NCBI GenBank assembly: GCA_041600575.1
Contig: JBFIJV010000002.1
Span: 1 to 40,410 of the forward strand
Direction of reading: 5' to 3'
DNA from: Gammaproteobacteria bacterium
Lineage (GTDB): Bacteria; Pseudomonadota; Gammaproteobacteria; Eutrophobiales; Eutrophobiaceae
DNA: 40,410 bases
Below are positions 9,288-34,686 of the stretch, in pieces (the first letter of the stretch is position 1; each line of letters starts with the position of its first letter). The position numbers and the translations under genes were made by a program. A model generated the notes under the pieces. It was not told the origin of the DNA, did not search any database, and saw only the letters and a list, made by a program, of their open reading frames with translations.

Positions 9288-10256
9288 TTAAGTATTGAAT
9301 CTACAAACTTTATTGCGTCCGGAATTTTTTGCTTTATACATTGCCTTGTCGGCAGCATCTATAAGTTTGTTCGGATTGTCATGATCCGACATCTCGGCCA
9401 CGCCAACGGAAATGGTTGCGCCAGGTAGTAATTTTCCCTCTTTATCAATTATTTTGGTTTTACTGATTGCTTCACGCAGCCGCTCTGCAATAGTCAGAGT
9501 CGCGTCGATATTCAATCCGGGTAATAGAGCAAATAATTCCTCTCCACCATAGCGGGTAACAAGGTCTTCCGGTCGTAAATGTTGAATAATAGTTTGCGAT
9601 ATTGTGTGCAATGCGATGTCACCGGCCAGATGCCCATTTTTATCATTATAGTCTTTGAAATTATCGACATCGATCATCATTACCGATAGCCCCGTATTAT
9701 TTTTATGACAACGTTGCATGATACGGACGAACATATTATCGAGCCAGCGACGATTATAAAGACTGGTGAGCGCATCAACGGTTGCATTATGTTCATATTC
9801 TTTAAGGAGGCCCTTGATTTTTTTAATTACAGAATTGCCATGGCGTAATCGCCTTGATAATACTGCAAGTATATTATTCGCAATAGCATGTGAACTGCCA
9901 ATCAATGACCACATCACATCTTCTTCAATGACGAGCACCCTTGAATCTTGAGTCGCCGTCACATAAGCGGATGCAGGCTGATGATCAATTATCGCAATCT
10001 CGCCGATACTTTGTCCGGGACCAAGCACTATGATCGGGTCAATGTTTTCGGCTAACAGATGTACGTTGAATTCACCGGAGAGGATTAAATAAACATGGGT
10101 ATTTGTTTCACCTGACTTCACCAGTATTTCATCTTTGGAAACAAGTCGTGTAATGCAATCGGAAAGCAATGGTAAGGCGGAACTAAAAAGGACGTTGTTA
10201 AATAATTCCTGATCTTTAATATCAGCACTGCTAATTGGATGTTGATGACCTTGCAT
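9288..10256 (-). CDS. Diguanylate cyclase with an N-terminal cyclic-nucleotide-binding (CAP_ED-like) domain
   Basis: The N-terminal half looks like a cNMP-binding fold (GETNTHVYLILSGEF...GPGQSIGEIAII). The C-terminal GGDEF domain shows DALTSLYNRR, IDVDNFKDYND and RPEDLVTRYGGEELFALLP, that is an RxxD I-site plus a GGEEL active-site variant. Confidence 0.85.
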   Translation of the reverse strand: MQGHQHPISSADIKDQELFNNVLFSSALPLLSDCITRLVSKDEILVKSGETNTHVYLILSGEFNVHLLAENIDPIIVLGPGQSIGEIAIIDHQPASAYVTATQDSRVLVIEEDVMWSLIGSSHAIANNILAVLSRRLRHGNSVIKKIKGLLKEYEHNATVDALTSLYNRRWLDNMFVRIMQRCHKNNTGLSVMMIDVDNFKDYNDKNGHLAGDIALHTISQTIIQHLRPEDLVTRYGGEELFALLPGLNIDATLTIAERLREAISKTKIIDKEGKLLPGATISVGVAEMSDHDNPNKLIDAADKAMYKAKNSGRNKVCRFNT

Positions 10257-12261: not shown

Positions 12262-12263
12262 CG

Positions 12264-13286
12264 CTATTTACCGTAACGTGCCAATGCTTCCAGGCAGCGT
12301 TCTTTGTGATGAGAACCATGTCCGGGTTCAATCACGGTGCCGGGGATCTCTAGTCCATAGTGGATGGATGCCGTATCAGCGAGCAATATCCAAAAACATA
12401 ATTGTGATAATCGCGATTCAATATCACTAAGCTGTGAAACACTATCCCAATTGAGAATTAATATTTGTGAGCCCTTGCCACTGAATTGCTTGACCAGCAA
12501 GCCTTGCTCTCTGGCAAACACCTTCCATGCGATTGAATTAACCGGATCGCCAGCCCTGTATTTTCTAAAGCCGGAGAAATCATCAGTGCCCGCTTGTGTT
12601 CCGTAGTCGATATTTAGTTCATGCAATGTGTTTAACGGCAGTTGTTTATGTCCTTTAGGTGCGGGATAAACCAGACATTCAAAATCGGGTTTGTAATAAG
12701 CCCATGCGCTAAAGATGCCTAATGGAAAATTGGTTGAGATTTTCAGGCGTTCTAACATTAATACGCCACGACTATTCGTTTGTATTGGATAATGACAGGT
12801 CGATTGTTTGCCTGCTTCAAGCCCCATAGAAACTATTGGCTGTTCAGTTTTTTTTCTAAATAATTTTTTTCTTGTGTCGTGACATTCCAGTTTTATTGAA
12901 AATCTTGCTGCACCAGCACGGTTGTCGAGTTGTATAGGGAAGAGTGCTTGTTGTCCGACAAATACGGCTTTAGGTTTGGTTGACGTTAGTATCAGGCCAG
13001 TCAGGTTTCGATAAGTATGTAACATACAGACCAACCCCAGGCTTGCCAGGAGAAAGCAGAGCACAAAGGCCATATTGTTGTTGTAGTTTATGGCGCCTAA
13101 TAACATGACAATGAGCATCAATCCATAGAGCCAGCCTTGAGCAGTAGGGAAGATATAAACACGTTGGCGCTTAAATTGATTGGCTGGAATACCTGTGTTG
13201 CCGGAAGCATCGGCAGGTGCACGTTCCAACACAACGGGTATCGCCATCAGGCCCCCTTTAAAAAAATTAAATCTTACTGCCATCAA
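12264..13286 (-). CDS. DUF58-family protein (vWA-like partner of MoxR ATPases)
   Basis: Two N-terminal transmembrane helices and a DUF58-like core (DDFSGFRKYRAGDPVNSIAWK). It is sandwiched between moxR and tgpA with 2-nt gaps. The start could instead be an internal Met. Confidence 0.8.
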   Translation of the reverse strand: MMAVRFNFFKGGLMAIPVVLERAPADASGNTGIPANQFKRQRVYIFPTAQGWLYGLMLIVMLLGAINYNNNMAFVLCFLLASLGLVCMLHTYRNLTGLILTSTKPKAVFVGQQALFPIQLDNRAGAARFSIKLECHDTRKKLFRKKTEQPIVSMGLEAGKQSTCHYPIQTNSRGVLMLERLKISTNFPLGIFSAWAYYKPDFECLVYPAPKGHKQLPLNTLHELNIDYGTQAGTDDFSGFRKYRAGDPVNSIAWKVFAREQGLLVKQFSGKGSQILILNWDSVSQLSDIESRLSQLCFWILLADTASIHYGLEIPGTVIEPGHGSHHKERCLEALARYGK

Positions 13287-13288
13287 CC

Positions 13289-14245
13289 TTAAGGTATAGG
13301 AACGTTCTGAATTAAATGTTCGGCTGGCTGCAAAGCTTCTTTGTCAGAAACTTCATAATTAAACTGAAGACGATGTCCAATAACGCCAGGCAATATTGCC
13401 TGTATATCTTCAGGTAATACATGTTCATGTGCGTGTAACAGAGCCCATGCCTTTGCGGCACTTAGAATGGCCAATCCTGCACGCGGTGATAAACCATGTG
13501 AGTAATTGCCCGAGGTGCGACTAAACTCAAGTAAGTTTTGTAAATAATCAAGAATGGCATCTGCAACGTGTACGTGCACCAGTTGTTTTTGCAGTTGTAT
13601 TAATTCTGTGCCTGATAGAACAGCTTCAGTATCTTCCAGCAATTGTTTTCTGTCTTTACCATTTAGTAACTCGCGCTCTGCAACATTGTCTGGATAACCT
13701 AATTCTATCCGCATCAGAAAACGATCCAGTTGTGATTCGGGTAATGCAAATGTGCCGACCTGATTCATCGGGTTTTGGGTGGCAATCACAAAAAACGGTT
13801 CCGGCAAGGACCTTGTTTCGTTATCTGTTGTGACCTGATACTCAGCCATGGCTTCGAGTAATGCACTTTGCGTTCTTGGTGTTGCTCTATTGATCTCATC
13901 GGCTAACAGCACGTTGGAAAAGACCGGGCCCTGATGAAAATCAAATTTATTAGTATCGCGGTTATATACTGATACACCCAGGATATCTGCTGGTAGTAAG
14001 TCGCTAGTGAACTGTATGCGTTGGTATTGTAAACCCATTACTTTAGCAAGCGTGTGTGCCAGTGTTGTCTTGCCAACGCCGGGTGTGTCTTCAATTAACA
14101 GATGACCCCTGGCAATCATGCAGGCTATGGCAAGTTTAATCGCATTATTTTTGCCCAGAATAATTTTGCTAATTGCGTTGATGACATTATCAAGCTTAAT
14201 AATGTTAGCTGAAGCAGAATTAATATCTTCTGTCATGTTCATCAT
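13289..14245 (-). CDS. MoxR-family AAA+ ATPase
   Basis: Walker A (EDTPGVGKTTLA), Walker B (LLADEINRA) and sensor motif (ATQNP), in a 318 aa protein typical of MoxR. Its start overlaps the pmbA stop (TAATG at 14245). Confidence 0.9.
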   Translation of the reverse strand: MMNMTEDINSASANIIKLDNVINAISKIILGKNNAIKLAIACMIARGHLLIEDTPGVGKTTLAHTLAKVMGLQYQRIQFTSDLLPADILGVSVYNRDTNKFDFHQGPVFSNVLLADEINRATPRTQSALLEAMAEYQVTTDNETRSLPEPFFVIATQNPMNQVGTFALPESQLDRFLMRIELGYPDNVAERELLNGKDRKQLLEDTEAVLSGTELIQLQKQLVHVHVADAILDYLQNLLEFSRTSGNYSHGLSPRAGLAILSAAKAWALLHAHEHVLPEDIQAILPGVIGHRLQFNYEVSDKEALQPAEHLIQNVPIP

Positions 14246-20534: not shown

Positions 20535-20730
20535 TTGTCCCCAAGGGTAATTATTCTGAATTTTCAGTTTATGTGGTACTAAAGGAGCAAAAGTATACCT
20601 ATTGTCTGTATCTGTGGGAATACTGCTAATTTCTTTTACTAATCGAATCTGTGCTTTAATTGCTGTAATTTATAATAAATACTGAATTTGACGATATTAT
20701 TCACGTCATCATCACATTATTTGCGCTGTA

Positions 20731-21468
20731 ATGCTCCAAAATAAACTTACCCGTGGTCTAAAAAACTTGACGACAAACCCCCAAGGACACCTGCTTCTCA
20801 TCGAAGACCATCATGATATCGCTGAAACGATCTGTGAGTATCTGGAGCGTTGCGGTTATGTGATGGATCATGCTGCTGATGGCATTACCGGTTTACATCT
20901 TGCTGTTAGCAATGATTACGATGCCGTAATTCTCGATCAAATGTTACCTGGTATGGATGGGATTGTTCTACTGGAAAAAATACGTAATGAGGCAAAACGG
21001 GATGTGCCTGTATTAATCCTGACTGCCAGAGATACATTACAAGATAAAATTGCCGGCCTAGACGCAGGCGCCGATGATTATCTGGTCAAACCATTCGAGA
21101 TTAAAGAGCTTGAAGCTCGGGTTCGAGCACTAATACGCAGACAACGTGGGTTGCTGAGTCCTAAAAGACTGCAGGTGGCCGATCTGATATTCGATACCGG
21201 CACATTGGAGGTTTCACGGGCCAATACACCAATTAAATTGACGCCGATAGGTTTGAAAATCCTGAAAATTTTAATGCATGCCTCACCGCGAGTTGTCAGT
21301 AGACGCGAGATTGAGCGCCAGATCTGGGGTGATATTTTGCCGGACAGTGATACTTTGCGAAGTCATATGTATAACCTGAGAAAATCAATCGACAAACCAT
21401 TCAGTAAAGCATTAATGGAAACCATGCAAAATACCGGCTTTCGCCTGGTTGATCCTGATGAAGACTGA
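20731..21468 (+). CDS. OmpR/PhoB-family response regulator
   Basis: Receiver domain (LLIEDHHD..., AVILDQMLPGMDG, LILTAR, DDYLVKPF) plus a winged-helix trans_reg_C domain (LTPIGLKILKILM..., LRSHMYNLRKSI, GFRL). Confidence 0.9.
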   Translation: MLQNKLTRGLKNLTTNPQGHLLLIEDHHDIAETICEYLERCGYVMDHAADGITGLHLAVSNDYDAVILDQMLPGMDGIVLLEKIRNEAKRDVPVLILTARDTLQDKIAGLDAGADDYLVKPFEIKELEARVRALIRRQRGLLSPKRLQVADLIFDTGTLEVSRANTPIKLTPIGLKILKILMHASPRVVSRREIERQIWGDILPDSDTLRSHMYNLRKSIDKPFSKALMETMQNTGFRLVDPDED

Positions 21469-22750
21469 TACCGGCATTAATCAACGTGTGATAAACGCCT
21501 TTATATTACAGGCGGTTTTGATCAGTGCAGTTGCCTTGTTGGGTGTTTATGCGGCTCGCTTTGTTATGGGCGATATCCTGATTCAACGCGCTTTGGACGA
21601 TGAAGCATCACATTATTGGACTCGATACGATACGGATAAACCGGCTCCGCGTCCTGATACTTATAATTTGACGGGATACTTAAACCCGGGCGATAAAATA
21701 ATTCCCGCAGAAATTTTAAACCTGGGTCCCGGCCTGCATAAGTTAAGCGATAAGCATTCGGATTTTTATATCGTGCATGTATCAGAGCATGACGGGCATA
21801 CGCTGTATCTTGAATTTGATGGTCAACAGGTCAGCGAATTGGCGTTGTTTTTTGGCATTTTTCCGCTCGCGGGTTTTCTTATTGTGATTTATTTATCAGG
21901 TTGGGTCTCATACCGCTTACTGTCGCAAGCTGTATCACCGATCATTAAATTAGCAAAAACATTAGAAGAGCTCGATCCAAGCAGTGAAGAATTTTCTGAA
22001 AAACTAAAACAGGCGTTGCCTGATAACGTCGACCAGGAGGTTGCGGTTTTAGCGCAGGCGTTATCGGATCTATCTGACCGGATAGTCTCTTTTGTCGTGC
22101 GAGAACGTAATTTCACGCGTGATGCGAGTCATGAATTACGGAGTCCTATTACTGTTATAAAAATCGCATCTGATTTTTTATTGGAGGATGAATCACTGAG
22201 CGAGGCACAAACCAGGCCATTACTACGTATAAAGAACAATGCGGCAGACATGGAGGAATTGATTGAAGCATTATTAATCCTTGCGAGGGAGACAGATAGA
22301 GAATTATCGTCAGAACCGGTTTGTATCAATGATGTCGTATCAGAAGAAATTGAAAGAACAAACAATCTTCTGTTGGGCAAACCAGTAGCGGTTAATGTTG
22401 AAGAAAAAAATAAATTGTTTGTAAATGGATCTGACAAGGTTTTATCGGTACTGATCGGCAACCTTATCCGTAATGCGTTTTCTTATACTGATGAAGGCAA
22501 TGTCAATATTCTTATTGCCGGCGATAATTTGATTATTGAAGACAGTGGCATAGGAATGCATAAAGATGATGTTGAGCAAATGTTTAAACCGTTTAAACAG
22601 GGCAAGAATAAACCTCGTGGTGGTTATGGTGTTGGTTTAACCATCGTTAAAATGCTATCGGACCGGTTTAATTGGCCTATTAATATCAACAGTGAGCTTG
22701 ATTATGGGACCAGGGTTACGGTTAAATTTTCCAGGGGCTCTATTGTCTGA
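21458..22750 (+). CDS. Sensor histidine kinase (two transmembrane helices, periplasmic loop, HAMP-like linker, HisKA, HATPase_c)
   Basis: H-box ASHELRSPITVI, N-box GNLIRNAFSYT and G-boxes DSGIGM / GYGVGL. The ATG at 21458 overlaps the regulator stop by 11 nt. The ORF-track start is a TTG at 21449. Confidence 0.9.
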   Translation: MKTDTGINQRVINAFILQAVLISAVALLGVYAARFVMGDILIQRALDDEASHYWTRYDTDKPAPRPDTYNLTGYLNPGDKIIPAEILNLGPGLHKLSDKHSDFYIVHVSEHDGHTLYLEFDGQQVSELALFFGIFPLAGFLIVIYLSGWVSYRLLSQAVSPIIKLAKTLEELDPSSEEFSEKLKQALPDNVDQEVAVLAQALSDLSDRIVSFVVRERNFTRDASHELRSPITVIKIASDFLLEDESLSEAQTRPLLRIKNNAADMEELIEALLILARETDRELSSEPVCINDVVSEEIERTNNLLLGKPVAVNVEEKNKLFVNGSDKVLSVLIGNLIRNAFSYTDEGNVNILIAGDNLIIEDSGIGMHKDDVEQMFKPFKQGKNKPRGGYGVGLTIVKMLSDRFNWPININSELDYGTRVTVKFSRGSIV

Positions 22751-22770
22751 AAAGTAGCAATATCAGGTTC

Positions 22771-22809
22771 TTCACATAATCTTCACACTTGCTAGACCTG
22801 TTGTTCACA
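22771..22809 (+). promoter_or_regulatory. Three helically phased TTCACA direct repeats (candidate OmpR-family response-regulator binding site and promoter of the desaturase operon)
   Basis: TTCACA occurs at 22771-22776, 22782-22787 and 22804-22809, giving start-to-start spacings of 11 and 22 bp. The repeats lie in the 108-bp gap between the kinase stop and the desaturase start. Confidence 0.5.
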
Positions 22810-22858
22810 GACTCCCGCGCACACTAACCGAGATAAATAATTCTCTACGAGAAAAGAA

Positions 22859-23797
22859 TTGAAAACACAAAATAAATTATCCTTGTTTCAAAAACTATGC
22901 TGTTGGTTGTTTAATGATTCATCAATATATGAGGGATTAAATGAACAACAGAAACAAAAGATAGATAGTTTCAGGCTGACAGTTTTTATCGTGATGCATA
23001 TTGCTTGTCTTGGCGTGCTCTATGTTGGTGTCAGTTGGATAGCCGTTTTACTGGCGGTGTTTCTTTATTTCAGCCGAATGTTTTTCATTACTGCATTCTA
23101 TCATCGGTATTTTTCACATCGAAGTTATAGCGTTTCACGCCCGATACAATTTTTAATGGCCGTTGCCGGGTGTATGGCTGGACAACGTGGCCCCCTTTGG
23201 TGGGCAAGCCACCATCGTGGTCATCATATCAATTCAGACACACATACTGATCCGCATTCTCCAAGAAACGGGTTTCTCAATAGTCATCTGCTCTGGTTCT
23301 TACGACGTGGAAATTTTCCTTTACACGATGAACGTATCAAAGACCTATTGCGTTACCCTGAATTAAGGTTGCTAGAAAGAGTTGACTGGATACCTTTTCT
23401 TTTCATGTTCTACTGTTGCTTTCTTCTGGGCAATTTCCTCGCGCTCAATTTTCCTTACCTAAATACGAGTGGGTTGCAATTGCTGGTCTGGGGTGGTTTT
23501 GTTTCAACAGTCGTTCTTTATCATGCCACCTATACCATAAACTCACTGGCGCATGTGTTTGGTAAGCGCCGTTTCAATACCGATGATGACAGCCGTAATA
23601 ATGTCTGGCTGGCTTTACTAACACTGGGTGAAGGTTGGCATAACAATCACCATCGTTTCCCGGCAGCGGCTCGACAAGGCTTTTATCGTGGTGAGCTTGA
23701 TATCAGTTTTATATTAATAAAAATGTTCGCCGCCCTGGGCTTGGCAAAAGATTTAAAACCCGTACCGTTGCATATACTGGAAGAAGGTCAGCAGTGA
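22859..23797 (+). CDS. Membrane fatty-acid (acyl-CoA/acyl-lipid) desaturase
   Basis: Three histidine boxes (HRYFSH, HHRGHH, HNNHH) and 4 predicted transmembrane segments. TTG start as in the ORF track; the exact start is uncertain. Confidence 0.85.
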   Translation: MKTQNKLSLFQKLCCWLFNDSSIYEGLNEQQKQKIDSFRLTVFIVMHIACLGVLYVGVSWIAVLLAVFLYFSRMFFITAFYHRYFSHRSYSVSRPIQFLMAVAGCMAGQRGPLWWASHHRGHHINSDTHTDPHSPRNGFLNSHLLWFLRRGNFPLHDERIKDLLRYPELRLLERVDWIPFLFMFYCCFLLGNFLALNFPYLNTSGLQLLVWGGFVSTVVLYHATYTINSLAHVFGKRRFNTDDDSRNNVWLALLTLGEGWHNNHHRFPAAARQGFYRGELDISFILIKMFAALGLAKDLKPVPLHILEEGQQ

Positions 23798-25050
23798 TGA
23801 GAATTGCAATTGTTGGTACTGGCATTTCAGGTTTAACAGCAGCCCATCTACTGAATCGAGATCATGATATTCACGTTTTCGAAGCGAATCATTATATTGG
23901 TGGGCACACCAATACTATTATTGTTAACGAGGATGATAGAACAATCCCGGTTGATACAGGCTTTATTGTTTTCAATGAACATAATTATCCAAACTTGTGT
24001 CAATTGTTTGAATTGCTGGATATTGAAAGTCGCGAGTCAGATATGAGTTTCAGCGTGCATTGTGATAAGACTTTGCTGGAATACAATGGTACGGATCTTA
24101 ATCGCGTTTTTAGTCAGCGTAAAAATATTTTCAGTCCAACATTTTGGCGCATGCTAAGGGACATTATGCGTTTTAATGATCATGCACCAGCAGAACTTCA
24201 TAACGGCATGGATGATAAAACCACCGTAGCTGAATATGCCGAGAAGAATAAATACTCAGCCAGTTTTATTGAATATTATCTGGTGCCATTAGGCGCCTCT
24301 TTATGGTCATGTCCGGCAGCAAAGTTTCGTCAATTCCCAATCAGGTTTGTGCTTGAATTTCTGGATAACCATTGCATGTTACAAGTTAATCAGCGCCCGC
24401 AATGGCGAACTGTCGTAGGCGGTTCCTATCAATATATCAAACCGCTGACTAAAAGTTTTTTCAATAAGATTAACTTGAATACCGGGGTTACCAGTGTCGC
24501 GAGGAAACATAATTATGTTGAGCTAACCCTGACAGATGGCAGAATAGAAACGTTTGATGAAGTTGTACTGGCTACCCATGCAGACACGAGTCGTCGATTA
24601 GTTAGCAATATGGAAGCTGAAGAAATCAACATGTTGGATCTGTTTGAGTATCAGGATAACGAAGCGATACTGCATACAGACACCAATCTATTACCCCGAA
24701 ATCAGCGAGCCTGGGCGAGTTGGAATTATCGTATCCCGGCGACTGAAAATAATCATGTTGCGGTGACCTATAACATGAATATGTTGCAGGGGATTAAGAG
24801 TGATAAAACCTATAGCGTTTCTCTTAATCAGGCCGATCAGATTGATCCATATAAAATTATACGACGGATAAATTATCATCACCCTGTTTTTCAACCTGGC
24901 AGAGATGCGGTACAAGCACAGCACCACAAATTGATTCGCCGCCGTGGTATTTCCTACTGTGGTGCCTATTGGGGCTATGGCTTTCATGAAGATGGTGTGC
25001 GTAGTGCAATTGCGGTATGCGCCGCTTACGATCAGGCATTGGCCGCATGA
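23794..25050 (+). CDS. FAD/NAD(P)-binding oxidoreductase (amine-oxidase / phytoene-desaturase-like fold)
   Basis: N-terminal dinucleotide-binding motif RIAIVGTGISGLTAAHLL. Its start overlaps the desaturase stop by 4 nt. Confidence 0.85.
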   Translation: MMRIAIVGTGISGLTAAHLLNRDHDIHVFEANHYIGGHTNTIIVNEDDRTIPVDTGFIVFNEHNYPNLCQLFELLDIESRESDMSFSVHCDKTLLEYNGTDLNRVFSQRKNIFSPTFWRMLRDIMRFNDHAPAELHNGMDDKTTVAEYAEKNKYSASFIEYYLVPLGASLWSCPAAKFRQFPIRFVLEFLDNHCMLQVNQRPQWRTVVGGSYQYIKPLTKSFFNKINLNTGVTSVARKHNYVELTLTDGRIETFDEVVLATHADTSRRLVSNMEAEEINMLDLFEYQDNEAILHTDTNLLPRNQRAWASWNYRIPATENNHVAVTYNMNMLQGIKSDKTYSVSLNQADQIDPYKIIRRINYHHPVFQPGRDAVQAQHHKLIRRRGISYCGAYWGYGFHEDGVRSAIAVCAAYDQALAA

Positions 25051-25808
25051 ACAGTTGTATTTATGAAGGCCGGGTTTCGCATGGTCGCTTCATGCCGCAC
25101 AAGCATTATTTTCAATACAAGTTATACATGATGTATCTGGATCTGGCTGAATTACCAGAACTGTTTGATCCGTATTTATTCTGGTCAGCAAGACGTACTG
25201 CACTAGCCTGGTTCAGGCGCAAGGATCATGTCGGCGATGCTGTTGACCTTGATAAAAACATACGTCAGATCATCAAACAGGACGCCGGGAAGGATCATAC
25301 CGGACCAATACGACTATTAACGCATTTGCGTTATTTTGGTTACTGCATGAACCCGGTCAGTTTTTATTATTGCTGGAATGATGCAGATACGGAACTCGAA
25401 TATATTGTTGCCGAAGTACATAACACACCCTGGGGTGAGACACATTGTTATGTACTGGATAGTTGTGAAATAGAAGAAGGCCAGGCGTCATATTCTTTTT
25501 CAAAGGCGTTTCATGTCTCACCGTTTATGGATATGGATCAATCCTATGAATGGCATTTGCCGAAGCCCGATGAAGAACTGAAAGTAAATATGAACAGTTT
25601 TGAAAAGGGTGAAAAGATTTTTAATGCGACGATGAATTTAAGCCGACAACCCATCAATCGATTACAACTTGCCCGAGTTTTATTGATGTATCCCTTCATG
25701 ACGATCAAGGTTATTTCTGCCATCTATTGGCAGGCCATGAAGCTCTGGTTTAAGAAAACACCTTTTTATACTCACCCAAAAAATTTAACACAAGAGACAA
25801 ATCGATGA
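25047..25808 (+). CDS. DUF1365-family protein
   Basis: MNSCIYEGRVSHGRF...F.Y..YM.YLDL is the typical DUF1365 N-terminus. The ATG at 25047 forms an ATGA overlap with the upstream stop. The ORF-track start at 25017 is probably an over-extension. Confidence 0.8.
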   Translation: MNSCIYEGRVSHGRFMPHKHYFQYKLYMMYLDLAELPELFDPYLFWSARRTALAWFRRKDHVGDAVDLDKNIRQIIKQDAGKDHTGPIRLLTHLRYFGYCMNPVSFYYCWNDADTELEYIVAEVHNTPWGETHCYVLDSCEIEEGQASYSFSKAFHVSPFMDMDQSYEWHLPKPDEELKVNMNSFEKGEKIFNATMNLSRQPINRLQLARVLLMYPFMTIKVISAIYWQAMKLWFKKTPFYTHPKNLTQETNR

Positions 25809-27082
25809 GATCGACAACGTTAAAACAAGATAATTTAAAAACGACGACATCAGTAAGCCCTCTTCTATTACTGGCTAAAAAACTGGTTAGAAAAAAAATC
25901 AGTGATCTGCCTGCGGGGTGTATCGCAATTAATGACCCGTTCGATAATTGGCAAACCGATGCTGCTCGACCAGTGGACATCACTATCGAAATTAAGGATA
26001 TGCGTTTTTATATAGACGTTTTGTTGGCTGGTAGTAACGGTGCTGCAAGTGCTTATCGCGATGGTTATTGGTGCTGCGATAATCTGGTCGGTTTGTTTCA
26101 AATGATGGTCAGAAATCTTGACCATACCGATGAACTGGAATCAGGTCTGGCTACACTGGGCAACTGGTGGTTACGACGCAGGCATAAAGCCAGAAGCAAC
26201 ACGCGTGAAGGTAGCCAGCAGAATATTCATGCGCACTATGATCTGGGTAATGACATGTTCCAACTGTTTCTCGACAAAACCATGACCTACTCATCCGGTT
26301 TTTTTCTGGAAGAACATTCAACGCTTGAACAGGCATCAATTGAAAAGCTGGATCGAATCTGTCGCAAGCTTGATTTAAAACCACACCATCGTTTGATTGA
26401 GATTGGCAGTGGTTGGGGCAGTTTTTCCATTCATGCGGCAAAAAATTATGGTTGCCATGTTACAACAGTAACGATTTCTAAAGAACAATATGAGCTTGCC
26501 AGACAGCGTATCCGGGAACAGAGCTTGGAAGATCGCATTGATATCAGGCTATGTGATTATCGTGATCTAACTGGAAAATTCGACAAGCTTGTTTCCATTG
26601 AAATGATAGAAGCTGTTGGCCATGAATATTTGCCAGCGTATTTTTCCAGTTGTGCATCCTTGTTAAAAGATGACGGCCAAATGTTGATCCAGGCGATCAC
26701 GATGCCGGATCAGCGGTATAAGCAATATCTTAAAACCTCGGATTTTATCCAGCAGTTTGTTTTTCCAGGCAGTTGTGTTCCTTCATTAACGGCGATGGTC
26801 GATGCAATGACTGAATCATCTGATTTACGTGTTAACCACATTGAGGATTTTGGTCTTCACTATGCGAAGACACTCAGGATCTGGCGAGGTAACTTCATGG
26901 CAAGATTGGATGAGGTTAAGCAATGCGGTTATGGCGATGATTTTATTCGTTTATGGGAATATTATCTTTGCTACTGTGAAGCGGGATTTATCGAACGGTA
27001 TACCGGCGTCGTACAAATGTTAATGAATAAACCAGCCTATGCCAGAGAAACAATATCGGCAGCGGACTCATCGACGCATTAA
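25805..27082 (+). CDS. Cyclopropane-fatty-acyl-phospholipid-synthase-family SAM-dependent methyltransferase
   Basis: CFA-synthase/mycolic acid methyltransferase signatures (HYDLGNDMFQLFLD, SAM motif LIEIGSGWGSF, YLCYCEAGF). It overlaps the upstream gene by 4 nt. Confidence 0.88.
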   Translation: MRSTTLKQDNLKTTTSVSPLLLLAKKLVRKKISDLPAGCIAINDPFDNWQTDAARPVDITIEIKDMRFYIDVLLAGSNGAASAYRDGYWCCDNLVGLFQMMVRNLDHTDELESGLATLGNWWLRRRHKARSNTREGSQQNIHAHYDLGNDMFQLFLDKTMTYSSGFFLEEHSTLEQASIEKLDRICRKLDLKPHHRLIEIGSGWGSFSIHAAKNYGCHVTTVTISKEQYELARQRIREQSLEDRIDIRLCDYRDLTGKFDKLVSIEMIEAVGHEYLPAYFSSCASLLKDDGQMLIQAITMPDQRYKQYLKTSDFIQQFVFPGSCVPSLTAMVDAMTESSDLRVNHIEDFGLHYAKTLRIWRGNFMARLDEVKQCGYGDDFIRLWEYYLCYCEAGFIERYTGVVQMLMNKPAYARETISAADSSTH

Positions 27083-27087
27083 TTAAA

Positions 27088-27636
27088 ATGAATATCAGTA
27101 ACTTCATACTATTTCAGACGGCATGGTTTGTGACCATTCTGTCGGCTGCGGATGGCCTGCCTTATCTTGGTGCGATCTCTACTCTGGCATGGATTTCCAT
27201 ACATCTCTATATTATCGGTGATAAACGCTTATTCGAATTTGAATTATTAGTTAGTGCTGCTGTGATTGGTTATTTGCTCGACTCGCTTCTGGTTTACAGG
27301 GATGTTATTGAATTTCCCGAATCTGCTTTATTAGGTGGTCCATCGCCGATATGGATGGTTTGTCTCTGGATAAATCTTGCGGCAACGATTAACTATTCTT
27401 TGTCATGGTTAAAAGGTCGTTATGTTTTATCCGCTCTAATGGCGAGCATAGCGGGCCCCTTTGCCTATGCTGCGGGAGAAAAACTTGGTGCTATCAAGCT
27501 TTCTGAAAATTCTTCCTTGATTGTTATTGGATTAATGTGGGCTTGTGCTATGCCGCTATTGATATTTCTTTCTGAGCGCATGTTTAAAAAAGAAGCATCT
27601 GAAAACCATGCTCTAATCAACGGATCAGGCAATTAA
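27088..27636 (+). CDS. DUF2878-like integral membrane protein
   Basis: A 182 aa polytopic membrane protein with N-terminus NFILFQTAWFVTIL. It sits directly after the CFA-synthase-like gene, as in the conserved cluster. The family name is from memory. Confidence 0.65.
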   Translation: MNISNFILFQTAWFVTILSAADGLPYLGAISTLAWISIHLYIIGDKRLFEFELLVSAAVIGYLLDSLLVYRDVIEFPESALLGGPSPIWMVCLWINLAATINYSLSWLKGRYVLSALMASIAGPFAYAAGEKLGAIKLSENSSLIVIGLMWACAMPLLIFLSERMFKKEASENHALINGSGN

Positions 27637-27637
27637 T

Positions 27638-28426
27638 ATGACGCTCACTTCAATTTTTTTATATGCGTGGGGCTTTAGTGCCATTGTTATGCTGCTGTTA
27701 TGGATGGTGCAATATAAAACAGAAAACGCGGGTATCGTTGATGTAGCGTGGTCGTTCTTAACACCGCTGGTGGGTGTTTGGTTGATACTGACAGATGATA
27801 TCGCGAATGAAGCGCGGCAATGGTTGATAATTGCCATGGCGATTTTTTGGGGTTTTCGGCTGGGTCTGTATTTATACAACCGGGTTATGAATGAAGTCGA
27901 AGATGGACGCTATCGATACATGCGTCAGTATTGTGGTAAATACGCCCAGCCAGTCATGTTTGTTTTTTTTCAGGTTCAAGCAAGCTGGACGCTGCTATTT
28001 GCCCTGCCGTTCTGGGCTGCGTCACGCAATTCAGGAGTTGGTCTTGGCTTGTTAGATCTTTTCGGTGTTCTAATCTGGATCATAGCTATTGCTGGCGAAT
28101 TCATAAGTGATCAACAACTGCATCGTTTCAGAATGAAGCCTGAAAATAAAGGGCTTGTTTGTGATAATGGTTTTTGGCGTTATTCGAGACATCCAAATTA
28201 TTTCTTTGAATGGTTGCAATGGTGGGCATTTGTTTTAATAGGTTACGGTAGCGATCACTGGTGGTTAACGTGGACCGGGTTAATTGTTATCTATGTCTTT
28301 ATCACCCGTATCACGGGTGTTCCTTATACGGAGCAGCAATCAATACGCAGTCGTGGCGATGCTTATAGGGATTATCAAAAAACCACGAGCATGTTTTTCC
28401 CGTTACCACCGAAGGAATCAAAATGA
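27638..28426 (+). CDS. DUF1295-family membrane protein (steroid 5-alpha-reductase / ICMT-like fold)
   Basis: Polytopic membrane protein with the characteristic GFWRYSRHPNYFFEW motif. Confidence 0.8.
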   Translation: MTLTSIFLYAWGFSAIVMLLLWMVQYKTENAGIVDVAWSFLTPLVGVWLILTDDIANEARQWLIIAMAIFWGFRLGLYLYNRVMNEVEDGRYRYMRQYCGKYAQPVMFVFFQVQASWTLLFALPFWAASRNSGVGLGLLDLFGVLIWIIAIAGEFISDQQLHRFRMKPENKGLVCDNGFWRYSRHPNYFFEWLQWWAFVLIGYGSDHWWLTWTGLIVIYVFITRITGVPYTEQQSIRSRGDAYRDYQKTTSMFFPLPPKESK

Positions 28427-28788
28427 TTGCCATTTCTAAAAAGTATAAGTCCGTATCAATGCCAATCGTGATAGCGTGTGGCGGTCTGTTAATTATGTTG
28501 ACGGTTATTCTTTATGCTTTGATCTATGGTGATTTCTTCAAAGAAGGCGCTGCATTGGTGGAGATGACATGGGGAATGGTAACACTTGTCGATCTGTATC
28601 TGGGTCTCTTGCTTTTTTCATTCTGGATTATGTGGAGAGAAGAAAATAAAGCGATCGCTTTTTTATGGTCCTTGCTAGTTCTGTTACTCGGTAATATGTT
28701 GTCATGTATTTATATCATCAAGGCAGTTTATGACGCGGAAGGGAATATGATGAAGTTCTGGCTAGGTGACCGCGAGGCAACGAAATAA
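28423..28788 (+). CDS. Small integral membrane protein, DUF1475-like
   Basis: A 121 aa protein with 3-4 transmembrane helices and the pattern WGMVTLVDLYLGLLLF...LLLGN. It overlaps the upstream gene by 4 nt. The family name is from memory. Confidence 0.6.
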   Translation: MIAISKKYKSVSMPIVIACGGLLIMLTVILYALIYGDFFKEGAALVEMTWGMVTLVDLYLGLLLFSFWIMWREENKAIAFLWSLLVLLLGNMLSCIYIIKAVYDAEGNMMKFWLGDREATK

Positions 28789-28792
28789 GCTG

Positions 28793-29527
28793 ATGCAAAA
28801 CATAGCATTTTTAATATGCCTGTCTTTGATTGTATTGCCGGTCTTCGCAGACAATGGTCTAACGCGGATCGGTAATGCCTATGACGGTGATAGCAATCAG
28901 TTACTCTATACGGAAAACCATTACGAAACTTTCAATGAGGGAGTCCTTTTACGCTCTGAGGTAATTTATAAAGATGTTGAAGAAAATATAATTGCCAAAA
29001 AAACAGCCGATTTTAGCAATAGCCAATTCATGCCGGAGTTTGCGTTAGAAAATCTTATGACCGGCCATAAAGAAGAAACACGTTATATCGAAAATAAATA
29101 TGAAGTTATTTTCAGTGAGTCACGTGCCAAAACGCAAAAAGAATCATTAATAAAATTTAAAGACGGTTCGATCAGTGATGCCGGGTTTGATAACTTTATT
29201 ATTGTGCACTGGGATGAGCTGGTAGCAGGTAAAAAATTTAAACGAGAATTCCTGGTGCCAAGCATGCTTGATTTTATTAATTTCAGAATATACCAGGAGG
29301 CTATTGTTGATAAGGATGGACAAGTACTTAGATTAATAAATATAGAACCGGATAGTTTCTTTGTGCGCGTCATCGCGGGCACATTAAAGCTCTACTATGA
29401 TAAAAACGAGCCTGCCTTGCGAATATTTGAGGGTGTTTCTAATATGCGGGACATCAAGGGTGATAATTTTAATGTTGTAATCAAATACAAGGATGTGCAA
29501 CAGCAAGTATTAAGTATTAACGAATAG
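28793..29527 (+). CDS. Secreted hypothetical protein
   Basis: The ATG at 28793 gives a clean signal peptide (MQNIAFLICLSLIVLPVFA/DN) and starts 5 nt after the upstream stop. The ORF-track GTG at 28766 would overlap the upstream gene. I recognise no family. Confidence 0.6.
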   Translation: MQNIAFLICLSLIVLPVFADNGLTRIGNAYDGDSNQLLYTENHYETFNEGVLLRSEVIYKDVEENIIAKKTADFSNSQFMPEFALENLMTGHKEETRYIENKYEVIFSESRAKTQKESLIKFKDGSISDAGFDNFIIVHWDELVAGKKFKREFLVPSMLDFINFRIYQEAIVDKDGQVLRLINIEPDSFFVRVIAGTLKLYYDKNEPALRIFEGVSNMRDIKGDNFNVVIKYKDVQQQVLSINE

Positions 29528-29586
29528 TTCGCTTCCGTAAACCCGACCGACCGTGTGATAATCCCTTCTTTTTATATTTAACTTAT

Positions 29587-30408
29587 ATGCAAACTATTAA
29601 TTTAATAATCGGTTGCGGTTATTTAGGTACACGATTACTTGGTGTGTTGAATGGCCAACAATGCTATGTAACAAATAGAACCGAGAAATCATATAAGACT
29701 GACAATGTAGAAAATATTCAAACCTTAATTCTGGATATAAATAATAAAGAAAGCTGGGCTAATCTGGATAGCCTGTTTAACAAACAAGAACTTCGCGTAT
29801 ATTTTCTGGTTACACCCAGACAAATAGATCGAACTATATTTACCGACTTTATTCAGCAACTCAATCACTTCAACATACAACGAGCGGTTTTGGTTTCATC
29901 AACGGTTGTGTACGGTAATATTGATCGAATAGTGGATGCAGATAGTGAAGTTAATATCGATAGTGAACGAGCAGAAAGACAATACGAGATTGAGCAGGAT
30001 TGGTTGGCTAACATGGGAAATGGCGTCATCGTTCGTTTTGCCGGTATCTATGGTCCGGATCGCGTCATAGGTAAAAATGGAATAATTAATAATGAGGCAG
30101 TCAATGGTGACCCCGATGGCTGGCTTAATCTGATTCATGTTGACGATGGCGCTCAACTAATAAAACGCATCAGCGAAATGGATCAGCCTGAACATTGTGA
30201 ACTTGCCTGTGATGGTAATCCGGTTAAACGCTATGATTATTATTCTTTCCTGGCGCAAGAATTAAACCAGCCTTCGCCCCTGTTTGTACAAGATGAGAGC
30301 ACACGAGGTACCGGACGCCGATGTGATAATACAATCACGATGACGCGGACAGGCTGGCAGCCCGAATACGCAGATTTTCGTAAAGCTTTAACAAAGTTGG
30401 TTTCCTGA
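29587..30408 (+). CDS. NAD(P)-binding Rossmann-fold protein (atypical SDR / epimerase-like)
   Basis: N-terminal LIIGCGYLGTRL dinucleotide-binding motif in a 273 aa protein. Confidence 0.7.
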   Translation: MQTINLIIGCGYLGTRLLGVLNGQQCYVTNRTEKSYKTDNVENIQTLILDINNKESWANLDSLFNKQELRVYFLVTPRQIDRTIFTDFIQQLNHFNIQRAVLVSSTVVYGNIDRIVDADSEVNIDSERAERQYEIEQDWLANMGNGVIVRFAGIYGPDRVIGKNGIINNEAVNGDPDGWLNLIHVDDGAQLIKRISEMDQPEHCELACDGNPVKRYDYYSFLAQELNQPSPLFVQDESTRGTGRRCDNTITMTRTGWQPEYADFRKALTKLVS

Positions 30409-30410
30409 AT

Positions 30411-31139
30411 ATGAATATCGAACGCATATTGGTTTTCCAACATCTCCGGATAGAGCATCCTGGTATTTTTCGTGATCTTTTTAAGGAAGACGGGATTGAA
30501 TACGATGTTATCGAGCTGGATGAAGGCGAGCCTATTCCTGATTTAACCGATTACGATGCGCTCTGGGTGATGGGCGGGCCTATGGATGTTTGGCAGGAAG
30601 ATAAATATCCCTGGCTCATTGCTGAAAAAGACGCGATTAGAAAAGCAATTAATGAATTAAACATGCCTTATATTGGCATTTGTCTCGGCCATCAATTACT
30701 GGCCGATGCTTTGGGTGGTGAGGTTGGCTCCGCTACTGCATCAGAAGTAGGCGTATTACAAATTCAAAAAACAGAAGCGGGCAAGCACAGTCCTTTTTTA
30801 CACAACTTGCCCGAGTCGATGTCGTGTTTGCAGTGGCATGCTGCTGAAGTGAAGCAAGCGCCAATTGGAATGCAGGTGTTAAGTTCTTCCGACAAGTGTG
30901 CTATTCAATCATTATCAAAAGGTACACAAGTATTCAGCATGCAATATCATCAGGAAATCATAGCGTCGACGGTATCGGACTGGAGTGCAATACCGGCCTA
31001 TAAAAATGCATTGGAAAGAAGTCTTGGGCAAGGTGCTGTAGAGAATCTCGAGCAGACTGTCATGGAATATATGCTAGAGTTTAATAACACGGCCAGGCAG
31101 TTATACAACAATTGGAAATCGACAATACTTAAAAATTGA
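30411..31139 (+). CDS. Class I glutamine amidotransferase-like protein
   Basis: Nucleophile elbow GICLGHQLL and a downstream YHQE (His/Glu) motif. It starts 2 nt after the previous stop. Confidence 0.8.
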   Translation: MNIERILVFQHLRIEHPGIFRDLFKEDGIEYDVIELDEGEPIPDLTDYDALWVMGGPMDVWQEDKYPWLIAEKDAIRKAINELNMPYIGICLGHQLLADALGGEVGSATASEVGVLQIQKTEAGKHSPFLHNLPESMSCLQWHAAEVKQAPIGMQVLSSSDKCAIQSLSKGTQVFSMQYHQEIIASTVSDWSAIPAYKNALERSLGQGAVENLEQTVMEYMLEFNNTARQLYNNWKSTILKN

Positions 31140-31149
31140 TCTTAGTAAG

Positions 31150-31353
31150 ATGATGTCTATTAATACAGATGATGTGCCATCGCCCTGTGTAAGAAACTGT
31201 TGTTTAAATACAGATGATGTTTGTCTGGGCTGTTTTAGAACAGTGTCAGAGATCGTCGCATGGGGTCAAGCTGATAGTAATAAACGAAAAAGTATTTTGC
31301 GTATTGCTGAACAGCGCAAGCAGAAAGCTGATAAAGCTAATAGAATTATCTAG
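31150..31353 (+). CDS. DUF1289-family small cysteine-rich protein
   Basis: SPCVRNCCLNTDDVCLGCFRTVSEIVAWG is the characteristic DUF1289 Cys motif. Confidence 0.8.
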   Translation: MMSINTDDVPSPCVRNCCLNTDDVCLGCFRTVSEIVAWGQADSNKRKSILRIAEQRKQKADKANRII

Positions 31354-33258: not shown

Positions 33259-34686
33259 ATGTCTAATTCAAGTTTGTATTTATTCAGAAACGATTTACGT
33301 ATAAATGATAATCCAGCCTTGTATGCGGCATCTCATGCAGGTCAACCGCTCATCCTGCTTTTCATAATGGATGATACCGACGAAAACTGGAAGACGGGTC
33401 GTGCCAGTCAATGGTGGTTACATCATAGTCTGCGGGCTTTGAATAAAGACATTCAAAAACAGGGGGGCAGTCTAATTTTCAGGCGCGGCGATACGCTGAA
33501 AATACTGGACGAAATAATCAAGGCAGCCAAGGTTAATAAACTGTTCTTCAGTAGGGCGTATGAGCCAACGCAAAAATTGATAGAAGAAAAGATTTATGCA
33601 ACGTGGCATGAACAGATTGAAATAAAGCGTTATGGAGGTTATTTATTATTTGAACCTGAACATATTCGCACGGGTAGTGATCAGCCCTATAAAGTGTTTA
33701 CGCCTTTTTGGAAGACGTGTTTAAAGCAGTTGGAGCCGCGATTAACAAAACAACGTTCACTGGAATCGATCAGCTTCAGCAAGGTGAAAATCCGTCGCGA
33801 TAATCTGGATGATTGGAATTTATTACCAACAAAGCCTGATTGGACTGGTGGCCTACGTGACAATTGGCAACCCGGAGAAGCTGGTGCCCACAGTGCTTTA
33901 AAAGATTTTCTTCAAGCAGGACTAAAAAACTACAATGAAGATCGAAACCGACCGGATCGATCAGGAACATCTCGTTTATCACCGCATTTACATTTTGGTG
34001 AAATCGCACCGACCCGAATCTGGCAAGAAGTAAAACAATATAGCGACACACATGAAGATAATTGTGATGGGATGATGTCTTTTTTGCGTGAACTGGGCTG
34101 GCGTGATTTTTCTACACACCTATTGTTTAATTGGCCAGACATTCCTGCAAAGCCATTCCGCGCTGAATACCAATCCTTCCCATGGAAGAAAAATAAGAAG
34201 GCACTAACCGCATGGCAAAAAGGGCAAACTGGTTTTCCCATAGTCGATGCCGGGATGAGAGAATTATGGCATACAGGCTGGATGCACAATCGAGTACGAA
34301 TGATCGTTGCTTCATTTCTGGTGAAGCATTTATTAATTCATTGGCATGAAGGAGAACGCTGGTTCTGGGATACATTGGTCGATGCTGATTTGGCCAATAA
34401 TGCTGCCAGCTGGCAATGGGTTGCCGGTTCCGGCGCCGATGCTGCACCCTACTTCAGGGTGTTTAATCCCATCTTACAAGGCAAGAAATTCGACCCAAAT
34501 GGTGATTACGTTAAACACTGGATTCCGGAAATTAGACAGGTGCCATCTAAATTTATTCATGAACCCTGGCTCATGCCCACAGGCGAAGCAGGCATCGCTA
34601 CTGATTATCCGTCCCCTATTATTGAACATGAGGCTGGCAGAAAAGCAGCGCTGGATGCATTTAAACGATTCAAGGAGAATGGTTAA
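33259..34686 (+). CDS. phrB: Deoxyribodipyrimidine photolyase (class I CPD type)
   Basis: LYLFRNDLRINDNPAL at the N-terminus. FAD-binding domain with TSRLSPHLHFGEI, GWRDF, TGFPIVDAGMRELWHTGWMHNRVRMIVASFLVKHL and WQWVAGSGADAAPYFRVFNP. Confidence 0.93.
   Translation: MSNSSLYLFRNDLRINDNPALYAASHAGQPLILLFIMDDTDENWKTGRASQWWLHHSLRALNKDIQKQGGSLIFRRGDTLKILDEIIKAAKVNKLFFSRAYEPTQKLIEEKIYATWHEQIEIKRYGGYLLFEPEHIRTGSDQPYKVFTPFWKTCLKQLEPRLTKQRSLESISFSKVKIRRDNLDDWNLLPTKPDWTGGLRDNWQPGEAGAHSALKDFLQAGLKNYNEDRNRPDRSGTSRLSPHLHFGEIAPTRIWQEVKQYSDTHEDNCDGMMSFLRELGWRDFSTHLLFNWPDIPAKPFRAEYQSFPWKKNKKALTAWQKGQTGFPIVDAGMRELWHTGWMHNRVRMIVASFLVKHLLIHWHEGERWFWDTLVDADLANNAASWQWVAGSGADAAPYFRVFNPILQGKKFDPNGDYVKHWIPEIRQVPSKFIHEPWLMPTGEAGIATDYPSPIIEHEAGRKAALDAFKRFKENG

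Follow-up and report, generated by a model that had tools for sequence, protein, structure and literature searches.

Gene content of the module

We analyzed a 40,410-bp stretch of DNA from a gammaproteobacterium of the family Eutrophobiaceae (GenBank assembly GCA_041600575.1, contig JBFIJV010000002.1; the whole stretch is referred to as the window), in which the genes of an OmpR/PhoB-family two-component system (TCS) precede an eight-gene operon that is predicted to modify membrane lipids. The gene set at the core of this operon is known from furan fatty acid (FuFA) synthesis; the linkage to a TCS with a conserved candidate operator is new. Open reading frames (ORFs) were called across the whole window, and those of at least 100 amino acids (aa) were scanned with Pfam. 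The genes described by a first-pass annotation, which had been made by reading the sequence without database searches, were all found on the + strand at the positions given there, and Pfam backed their domain calls.

The module starts with a response regulator (RR) gene (20767..21468), whose product, probably of 233 aa, contains Response_reg and Trans_reg_C domains. The longest ORF opens at 20731, and the orthologues, which are 55 to 88% identical, begin at the position matching the TTG codon at 20767 that we used as the start. The adjoining gene encodes a sensor histidine kinase (HK), for which homologues indicate a length of 430 aa and a Met start (21458..22750; longest ORF from 21449). It is composed of a first transmembrane (TM) segment, a periplasmic domain of about 98 aa, a second TM segment, a linker, and HisKA and HATPase_c domains. 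After a gap of 108 nucleotides (nt), the operon is headed by an integral-membrane fatty acid desaturase (Des) of the SCD1 type, i.e., the delta-9 family (22859..23797; Pfam FA_desaturase). It is followed by a UfaD-like FAD-dependent flavoprotein related to amine oxidases and phytoene desaturases (FADox; 23794..25050; Amino_oxidase and NAD_binding_8), a UfaO-like DUF1365 protein (25047..25808; PF07103, 283 bits over the full length), and a UfaM-like S-adenosylmethionine-dependent acyl-chain methyltransferase of the CMAS family (25805..27082; 292 bits). The last four genes code for a polytopic DUF2878 membrane protein (27088..27636; 132 bits; found in 33 related loci), a DUF1295 membrane protein of the steroid-5-alpha-reductase/ICMT-like superfamily (27638..28426; 214 bits, with a Steroid_dh match of 7.5e-08; found in 45 related loci), a small DUF1475 membrane protein with three predicted TM segments (28423..28788), and a protein of 253 aa with a signal peptide (28766..29527). 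The assignments to DUF1365, DUF2878, DUF1295, and DUF1475 were thus confirmed by Pfam, the last one weakly, at 29.5 bits and above the cut-off of 22.3.

With the longest ORFs, the junctions within the operon measured -4, -34, -4, +5, +1, -4, and -23 nt. The overlaps of 34 and 23 nt result from choosing the longest ORF for each gene. The longest DUF1365 ORF opens at 25017; homologues start at its M11 (MNSCIY; 25047), which gives a 4-nt overlap with the flavoprotein gene. In the gene of the secreted protein, an internal Met codon at 28793, the probable start, would leave a gap of 4 nt after the DUF1475 gene. When these homologue-supported or internal Met starts were used, every junction was 6 nt or less, in agreement with the tight packing that had been claimed.

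Conserved linkage of the two-component system and a tandem hexamer repeat

To compare gene neighborhoods, one genome per species was scanned with a DUF1365 alignment, and the ORFs of the 80 loci obtained (designated here by L numbers, as are loci added later) were called and clustered. The complete block of RR, HK, Des, FADox, DUF1365, CMAS, DUF2878, DUF1295, DUF1475, and secreted-protein genes was found intact in three unrelated flanking contexts, with protein identities from 75% down to 60%, and again in L011, L012, L020, L026, L037, and L091. Within the 80-locus scan, the TCS genes directly preceded the cluster in L011, L012, L013, L018, L020, L026, and L037; the cluster of L013 lacks the desaturase, and the kinase gene of L018 is fragmented. 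In a maximum likelihood tree of concatenated FADox, DUF1365, and CMAS sequences from 50 complete clusters, the nine clusters with an upstream TCS formed one clade (SH-aLRT 99), so that a single change suffices to account for them. The nearest neighbors of this clade are clusters from Planctomycetota and Acidobacteriota without an adjacent regulator.

The kinases are orthologous over their full length, including the periplasmic sensor domain, which shows 37 to 75% identity across orthologues. The family of this domain is small: among 5.8 billion proteins, only 90 protein clusters share it. The orthologue alignment contained no invariant Cys, His, or Met residue in the periplasmic domain that would suggest a redox sensor. 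More distant members retained the association with the operon in other arrangements. In L091 (47% sensor identity), the RR and HK genes lie upstream of a full operon; in L092 (38%), the operon ends with the kinase gene and the regulator is encoded convergently. An orthologous TCS (RR 65%, HK 53%) was found 3.5 kb from a cluster of another lineage, which has a lipocalin/DUF6134 layout (L072). In L093 and L094, the TCS genes are located on short contigs without a cluster within reach of the contig.

A receiver domain with a winged-helix Trans_reg_C domain, a HisKA/HATPase_c kinase, and a tandem direct repeat as candidate operator place the system, as judged from its sequence, in the OmpR/PhoB family. 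The heavy-metal systems CopRS and CusRS were rejected, since the proteins scored below the TIGR01387 and TIGR01386 cut-offs (187 versus 279 for the RR; 59 versus 292 for the HK). Identity with HprSR, PhoBR, or RppAB was rejected as well, as the RR fell below every NCBIfam equivalog cut-off, including those of PhoB, CopR/CusR, HprR, and RppA.

The intergenic regions of the module contain a direct repeat of the form TTCACR-N5-WTCACA, whose hexamers are 11 bp apart. In its exact form, TTCACNNNNNNWTCACA, the repeat matched the window twice, both times on the + strand and at the two promoters of the module. Shuffling gave an expectation of 0.09 matches, and none of 100 shuffled windows reached two. 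The first putative regulator box (TTCACGTCATCATCACA, 20700..20716) lies upstream of the RR gene and is proposed to be autoregulatory. It is followed 10 nt later by the -10-like sequence TGTAAT (20727..20732, +), which aligned with TGTAAT, TTAAAT, or TTTAAT in homologues. This spacing implies that the box covers the -35 region, an arrangement that corresponds to the layout of PhoB-type activators. As the TGTAAT sequence overlaps the ATG of the longest RR ORF, it also argues for the downstream TTG start. The second putative box (TTCACATAATCTTCACA, 22771..22787) is situated in the gap between the HK and Des genes, ahead of the desaturase, and a third TTCACA hexamer (22804..22809, +) follows 22 bp, or two helical turns, after its second hexamer. 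Direct repeats of two hexamers separated by 5 nt are the classical operator form of the OmpR/PhoB family, as exemplified by the TT(A/T/C)ACA repeats of Bacillus subtilis PhoP.

Alignment of the HK-Des gap and of the region upstream of the RR gene from five relatives revealed conserved islands amid divergent DNA. The island before Des comprised TTCACA-N5-TTCACA together with the third TTCACA 22 bp further on, in which TGTTCAC was invariant in all five relatives; the one before the RR gene comprised TTCACR-N5-ATCACA. Among the fetched loci, 18 of the 19 exact matches were located at these two positions in TCS-bearing loci. A relaxed pattern gave 34 matches in 1.35 Mb (about 10 expected); of these, 23 precede an RR orthologue, Des, or the first gene of the cluster by 18 to 134 nt. 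These matches include a GC-rich deep subclade and the loci L072, L091, L092, and L094. Apart from L091 and L093, which lack a strict match there, the TCS-bearing loci for which this upstream region was read had an equivalent of the first box 48 to 71 nt ahead of the RR start. The second box is kept upstream of the first biosynthetic gene in L001, L004, L006, L012, L013, L016, L091, and L092. In L013, which lacks Des, it precedes the FADox gene instead. In the deep subclade, the HK and Des genes are nearly contiguous, and transcription of the whole unit probably starts there from the autoregulated promoter.

At the sequence level, the synteny, the single clade, and the shared box together are good evidence of a dedicated two-component switch that regulates itself, and the TCS likely controls the operon. 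The binding of the regulator to the boxes, and the direction in which it would act, are predictions from the position and form of the repeat. The suggestion of the first-pass annotation that the operon has received a rewired input has been strengthened by the conserved synteny in unrelated contexts, the grouping of the upstream-TCS clusters in one clade, and the occurrence of the same box at both promoters.

Predicted furan fatty acid route and companion genes

The first-pass annotation had described the core of the operon as biochemically poorly resolved. This view is outdated, since UfaD, UfaO, and UfaM were defined in 2020 (PMC7380195). In Rhodobacter (Cereibacter) sphaeroides, UfaD (RSP1091) is a NAD/FAD-binding, phytoene-desaturase-like protein and UfaO (RSP1090) a DUF1365 protein; together they turn the UfaM product 11Me-12t-18:1 into 9M5-FuFA via a conjugated diene (Lemke et al. 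2020, PMC7380195). The Rhodopseudomonas palustris genes RPA2571, RPA2570, and RPA2569 encode UfaD, UfaO, and UfaM, respectively, and are necessary and sufficient for the pathway (PMC7380195). In Halomonas sp. strain YLGW01, ufaD, ufaO, and ufaM are consecutive, and the CFA-like enzyme of the cluster yields 11-methyloctadec-12-enoate in Escherichia coli; it was classified as a cis-vaccenate 11-methyltransferase rather than a cyclopropane synthase (2025, PMC12089945).

The window shares the order FADox-DUF1365-CMAS with R. palustris and the adjacency of the three genes with Halomonas. Its DUF1365 protein is full length, and the adjoining flavoprotein gene, which overlaps it by 4 nt, encodes a protein that fits the description of UfaD. 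The link to the Rhodobacter furan fatty acid enzymes that the first-pass annotation had drawn is supported. The window CMAS scored below all NCBIfam cyclopropane synthase equivalog cut-offs (282 versus 400 for PRK11705, the E. coli-type Cfa; 245 versus 650 for CfaB; 278 versus 600 for the Brucella-type model). It occupies the position that UfaM has in R. palustris and Halomonas, but this is also the position of the dispensable RSP1089 in R. sphaeroides.

Many relatives carry a second, shorter CMAS of 345 to 385 aa, which matches the Cfa model with about 150 bits and is 25 to 27% identical to the first one (e.g., L091:16434-17480, L092:7959-9011, L009:12942-14036, and L010:4182-5225). In its divergence from the main methylase, it parallels FufM of R. 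palustris, which is 26% identical to UfaM and adds a second methyl group to give a dimethyl furan fatty acid. A FufM-like second CMAS is absent from the window cluster, and the predicted end product is thus a monomethyl furan acyl chain.

The desaturase matched mouse SCD1 (PDB 4ymk) with an E value of 1.9e-37, and its motifs HRYFSH, HRGHH, NSLAH, and HNNHH aligned to the metal-binding motifs of the mouse enzyme. It thus displays the HxxxxH, HxxHH, NxxxH, and HxxHH series of SCD1-type desaturases in addition to the homology itself. Its gene directly precedes FADox in 23 of the 50 complete related clusters, including clusters of Planctomycetota and Nitrospirota and gammaproteobacterial ones regulated by LitR. 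Clusters headed by Des include ones with a LitR-type regulator and ones without an adjacent regulator. Judged from this distribution, Des looks like a frequent but dispensable companion, and its simplest role would be the supply of cis-monoenes on saturated chains. The proposal that a dedicated desaturase points to a distinct lipid product is unsupported: Des heads these clusters whatever their regulator and is not peculiar to TCS-wired ones, so there is no specific reason to expect such a product here. At 4272-5282 on the - strand, 18 kb away, the window encodes an oxidoreductase with Fer2, FAD_binding_6, and NAD_binding_1 domains, a reductase type able to feed electrons to membrane desaturases.

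The secreted protein belongs to a family of 1,811 representative clusters. Pfam gave no match, even for distant family members, and no relative was found in the PDB by sequence. An AlphaFold2 model (pLDDT 84.8) displayed an all-beta, barrel-like fold, whose best match was a Brucella DUF1849 protein (6ntr; TM score of about 0.5); RseB/MucB and LolA-like folds matched more weakly. We rejected the possibility that it is a divergent form of DUF6134, the secreted protein of LitR-type layouts (hhalign probability of 0.2%). A natural fusion of DUF2878 with the domain of the secreted protein (P0259, L095:1055-2320) suggests that the two act together, as they probably do in the operon. The fusion is encoded on a short Tara Oceans contig, away from any FADox-DUF1365-CMAS cluster.

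If these assignments hold, the eight-gene operon would modify phospholipid acyl chains in place along the furan fatty acid route. The SCD1-type desaturase would put a cis-monoene on saturated chains, and the UfaM-like methylase would convert it to a methyl-branched trans-monoene. The UfaD-like flavoprotein would then introduce a conjugated double bond, and the UfaO-like DUF1365 enzyme would insert an oxygen atom from O2 and thereby close the furan ring. Every enzymatic step is deduced from gene families and gene order, and on this basis the balance tips slightly toward a furan-type acyl chain as the product. The acyl chains may instead be modified to an end product other than a furan, such as a cyclopropane, mid-chain methyl-branched, or conjugated-diene chain, or a lipid that is further reduced or methylated by DUF1295. 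This alternative draws on the true cyclopropane synthases in the CMAS family, on Cfa being the best NCBIfam match of the window CMAS, and on RSP1089, which has the same position and is not needed for FuFA synthesis; in addition, DUF1295 resembles membrane reductases and methyltransferases, and four of the eight operon genes have no known function. Since the window CMAS fails every Cfa equivalog cut-off and the cluster-borne CMAS enzymes of R. palustris and Halomonas are UfaM, we consider a non-furan product rather unlikely, though it is the best placed of the competing explanations.

Downstream of the operon, after 59 nt, lies a Rossmann/SDR-like gene (29587..30408), followed by a GATase1 gene (30411..31139; Pfam GATase) and, 10 nt further, by a small Cys-rich ORF of 67 aa (31150..31353), all on the + strand. 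The position of the latter matches that of a 61-aa Pfam-DUF1289 gene in L001. The first-pass annotation had appended an SDR-like and a GATase1 gene to the operon after a gap. The GATase domain was confirmed; the SDR call is weak, as the Epimerase match (18.2 bits) lies under the cut-off of 20.9 and an N-terminal GxGxxG motif is its sole support. The SDR-like, GATase1, and DUF1289-like genes were seen only in the syntenic relatives L001 to L003 and L011, with unrelated genes in their place in L004, L006, and L091. We therefore rejected the SDR-like and GATase genes as members of the conserved module. Elsewhere in the window, a tight cluster on the - strand (10261-14245) comprises three genes for a MoxR AAA+ ATPase, a DUF58-like protein, and a TgpA transglutaminase-like membrane protein, followed by PmbA/TldD, and a diguanylate cyclase with an N-terminal cyclic-nucleotide-binding domain (cNMP_binding and GGDEF) is encoded at 9288-10256 on the - strand.

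Regulators of related clusters

Across related clusters, we found a TCS, a LitR/CarH-type regulator, rarely an extracytoplasmic function (ECF) sigma factor, or no adjacent regulator. A regulator of the LitR/CarH type, combining MerR and B12-binding domains (cluster c10), adjoins at least 14 related FADox-DUF1365-CMAS clusters, including those of L010 (3235-4155), L014 (6597-7532), L041, and L057. The typical layout of these clusters is regulator, second CMAS, DUF2878, DUF1295, DUF6134, lipocalin, Des (in some), FADox, DUF1365, and CMAS. ECF sigma factors lay within 10 kb in 4 of the 91 related loci. The regulator of this pathway thus seems to have been replaced more than once, and the TCS is one such replacement.

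In the window, an ECF sigma factor or ChrR-like gene was found neither in the Pfam scan nor with jackhmmer, seeded with E. coli RpoE and applied to ORFs of 70 aa or more, which agrees with the absence of such a pair noted in the first pass. Its statement that homologous clusters elsewhere are under sigmaE/ChrR control is likewise supported by the literature: homologous genes belong to the sigmaE/ChrR regulon in R. sphaeroides and Pseudomonas syringae, and the CFA synthase gene of the Vibrio cholerae cluster (VC1122) is induced by blue light via ChrR/sigmaE and a MerR-family regulator (PMC5241685). A light/UV context is retained around the TCS module as well. A photolyase gene lies 2.1 kb downstream in the window (33259..34686, +; DNA_photolyase and FAD_binding_7), and photolyase genes adjoin the module in L013 and L026 and are found within about 2.5 kb of the TCS in L072. 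In L013, the photolyase gene is divergent from the RR gene, and the shared gap of 125 bp (L013:6521-6645) contains three phased TTCAC hexamers; in this genome, the photolyase may thus share the regulon of the module.

These observations bear on a different view of the control, in which the operon would mainly be part of a photo-oxidative regulon under sigmaE/ChrR or a LitR-type regulator, encoded at another place in the genome, and the adjacent TCS would only modulate it or regulate something else. The published regulons, the photolyase near the operon, and the LitR-type regulators beside related clusters speak for it. We nevertheless regard it as unlikely, because no ECF/ChrR gene occurs within 40 kb, ECF sigma factors are as rare in the related loci as stated above, and the same box stands at the promoters of the regulator and of the operon and tracks the TCS through several arrangements. 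A chance or hitch-hiking association of the TCS with the operon, in which the hexamers would be ordinary sigma-70 -35-like sequences, is highly improbable: TTCACA does differ from TTGACA at one position, and two-component genes are abundant and often stand beside unrelated operons, but the linkage is kept in at least five arrangements or contexts and down to 38% sensor-domain identity, the 11-bp-phased hexamers stand out as conserved from unconserved intergenic DNA in AT-rich as well as GC-rich genomes, and no shuffled window reproduced the two exact matches.

Our favored explanation combines a dedicated OmpR-family TCS and an eight-gene lipid-modifying operon in one ten-gene module. With its periplasmic domain of some 98 aa, the kinase would detect a signal from the envelope or periplasm and phosphorylate the regulator, which would bind the tandem TTCACA-like hexamers. 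Binding to the site over the -35 region of its own promoter would result in positive autoregulation, and the second site, with its three phased hexamers ahead of the desaturase gene, would place the furan-route operon under the same control. We assign a probability of roughly 60% to this explanation as a whole.

Several points weigh against it. On the side of regulation, a strict box match is missing ahead of the RR genes of L091 and L093, the box of L072 is inverted relative to its operon, and the window shows no convincing -10 element after the third hexamer. The operon could also be co-regulated by a ChrR/ECF pair encoded outside the window. The search for transcripts found the locus only in DNA metagenomes; the single RNA run, with 8% of the sampled words in common, most likely represents a relative. 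On the side of the chemistry, the Ufa assignments are based on family descriptions and gene position. R. sphaeroides can make FuFA without RSP1089, the CMAS gene beside its ufaD-ufaO, and has its UfaM gene at another locus (PMC7380195); gene order alone is thus no proof of UfaM activity. Moreover, RSP1087, RSP1088, and RSP1089 had no detectable effect on the lipid profile of R. sphaeroides (PMC7380195), so that the accessory genes may do something else.

A more far-reaching scheme can be drawn from the same genes. In these marine bacteria, a lipid-based homeostatic loop would have the TCS as its sensor in place of sigmaE/ChrR: the periplasmic domain would detect oxidized or consumed furan and olefinic lipids, possibly presented by the secreted protein and DUF2878, and induce their resynthesis. 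With a delta-9-type Des, the operon would then produce furan lipids with a new regiochemistry, which would derive from delta-9 monoenes instead of delta-11 ones and be independent of the FabA/FabB supply. We consider this scheme distinctly improbable in its entirety and offer it as a speculation.

Significance and comparison with known systems

Furan fatty acids are membrane lipids that scavenge radicals and singlet oxygen. Their bacterial pathway has been defined recently, and its regulation is known almost only via sigmaE/ChrR. The window locus and roughly 20 relatives would represent a second, mechanistically different control circuit, consisting of a membrane kinase, an OmpR-type regulator, and a candidate operator. 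The distribution of ECF/ChrR, LitR/CarH-type, and two-component regulators is evidence for repeated exchanges of the regulator in this pathway. The companion set of SCD1-type desaturase, DUF2878, DUF1295, DUF1475, and the secreted family of about 1,800 clusters is widely conserved and has not been addressed by published work, and its conservation points to missing steps or substrates of the pathway. As the hosts are abundant uncultured marine Gammaproteobacteria of sunlit water, the circuit may be relevant to how photo-oxidative stress is tolerated in the ocean.

A precedent for lipid remodeling controlled by a TCS is DesK/DesR of B. subtilis, which controls the membrane desaturase gene des. 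The likeness lies in a TCS that is dedicated to a membrane-lipid desaturation gene. DesR is a NarL-type regulator, and DesK is a thermosensor with five TM segments and a HisKA_3 domain but without a periplasmic domain. Membership in the DesK/DesR type was rejected, since the window RR has a Trans_reg_C domain and the HK combines a HisKA domain with two TM segments that flank a periplasmic loop of about 98 aa. With the operators of the PhoB/PhoP type, the candidate sites share tandem hexamers, the 11-bp spacing, and a position over the -35 region of an autoregulated promoter; regulon and signal are different.

The LitR/CarH-type and V. cholerae clusters have the biosynthetic core, DUF2878 and DUF1295, often the same desaturase, and a photo-oxidative context in common with the window. 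They differ in the sensor: LitR and ChrR systems employ a cytoplasmic light/B12 sensor or an anti-sigma factor, in contrast to the membrane kinase with a periplasmic domain in the window. In addition, LitR-type layouts contain lipocalin and DUF6134 genes where the window has the DUF1475 and secreted-protein genes. Like the window, Halomonas sp. strain YLGW01 is gammaproteobacterial and has the three core genes adjacent to one another, a likeness of gene content and order. No mention of an operon or a regulator for the Halomonas ufa genes was found in the searched text of PMC12089945.

The Ufa system of Lemke et al. shares with the window the combination of a CMAS-family methylase, an FAD-dependent phytoene-desaturase-like protein, and a DUF1365 protein, in the R. 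palustris order and with photolyase and oxidative-stress genes nearby. There, phospholipid acyl chains are the substrate; for the window, the activity is predicted from the genes. The two systems differ in their control, which is exerted by sigmaE and ChrR in the former, whereas an OmpR-type TCS with its own candidate box is linked to the operon in the latter. To the common core, the window adds the SCD1-type desaturase, DUF2878, DUF1295, DUF1475, and the secreted beta-barrel-like protein.

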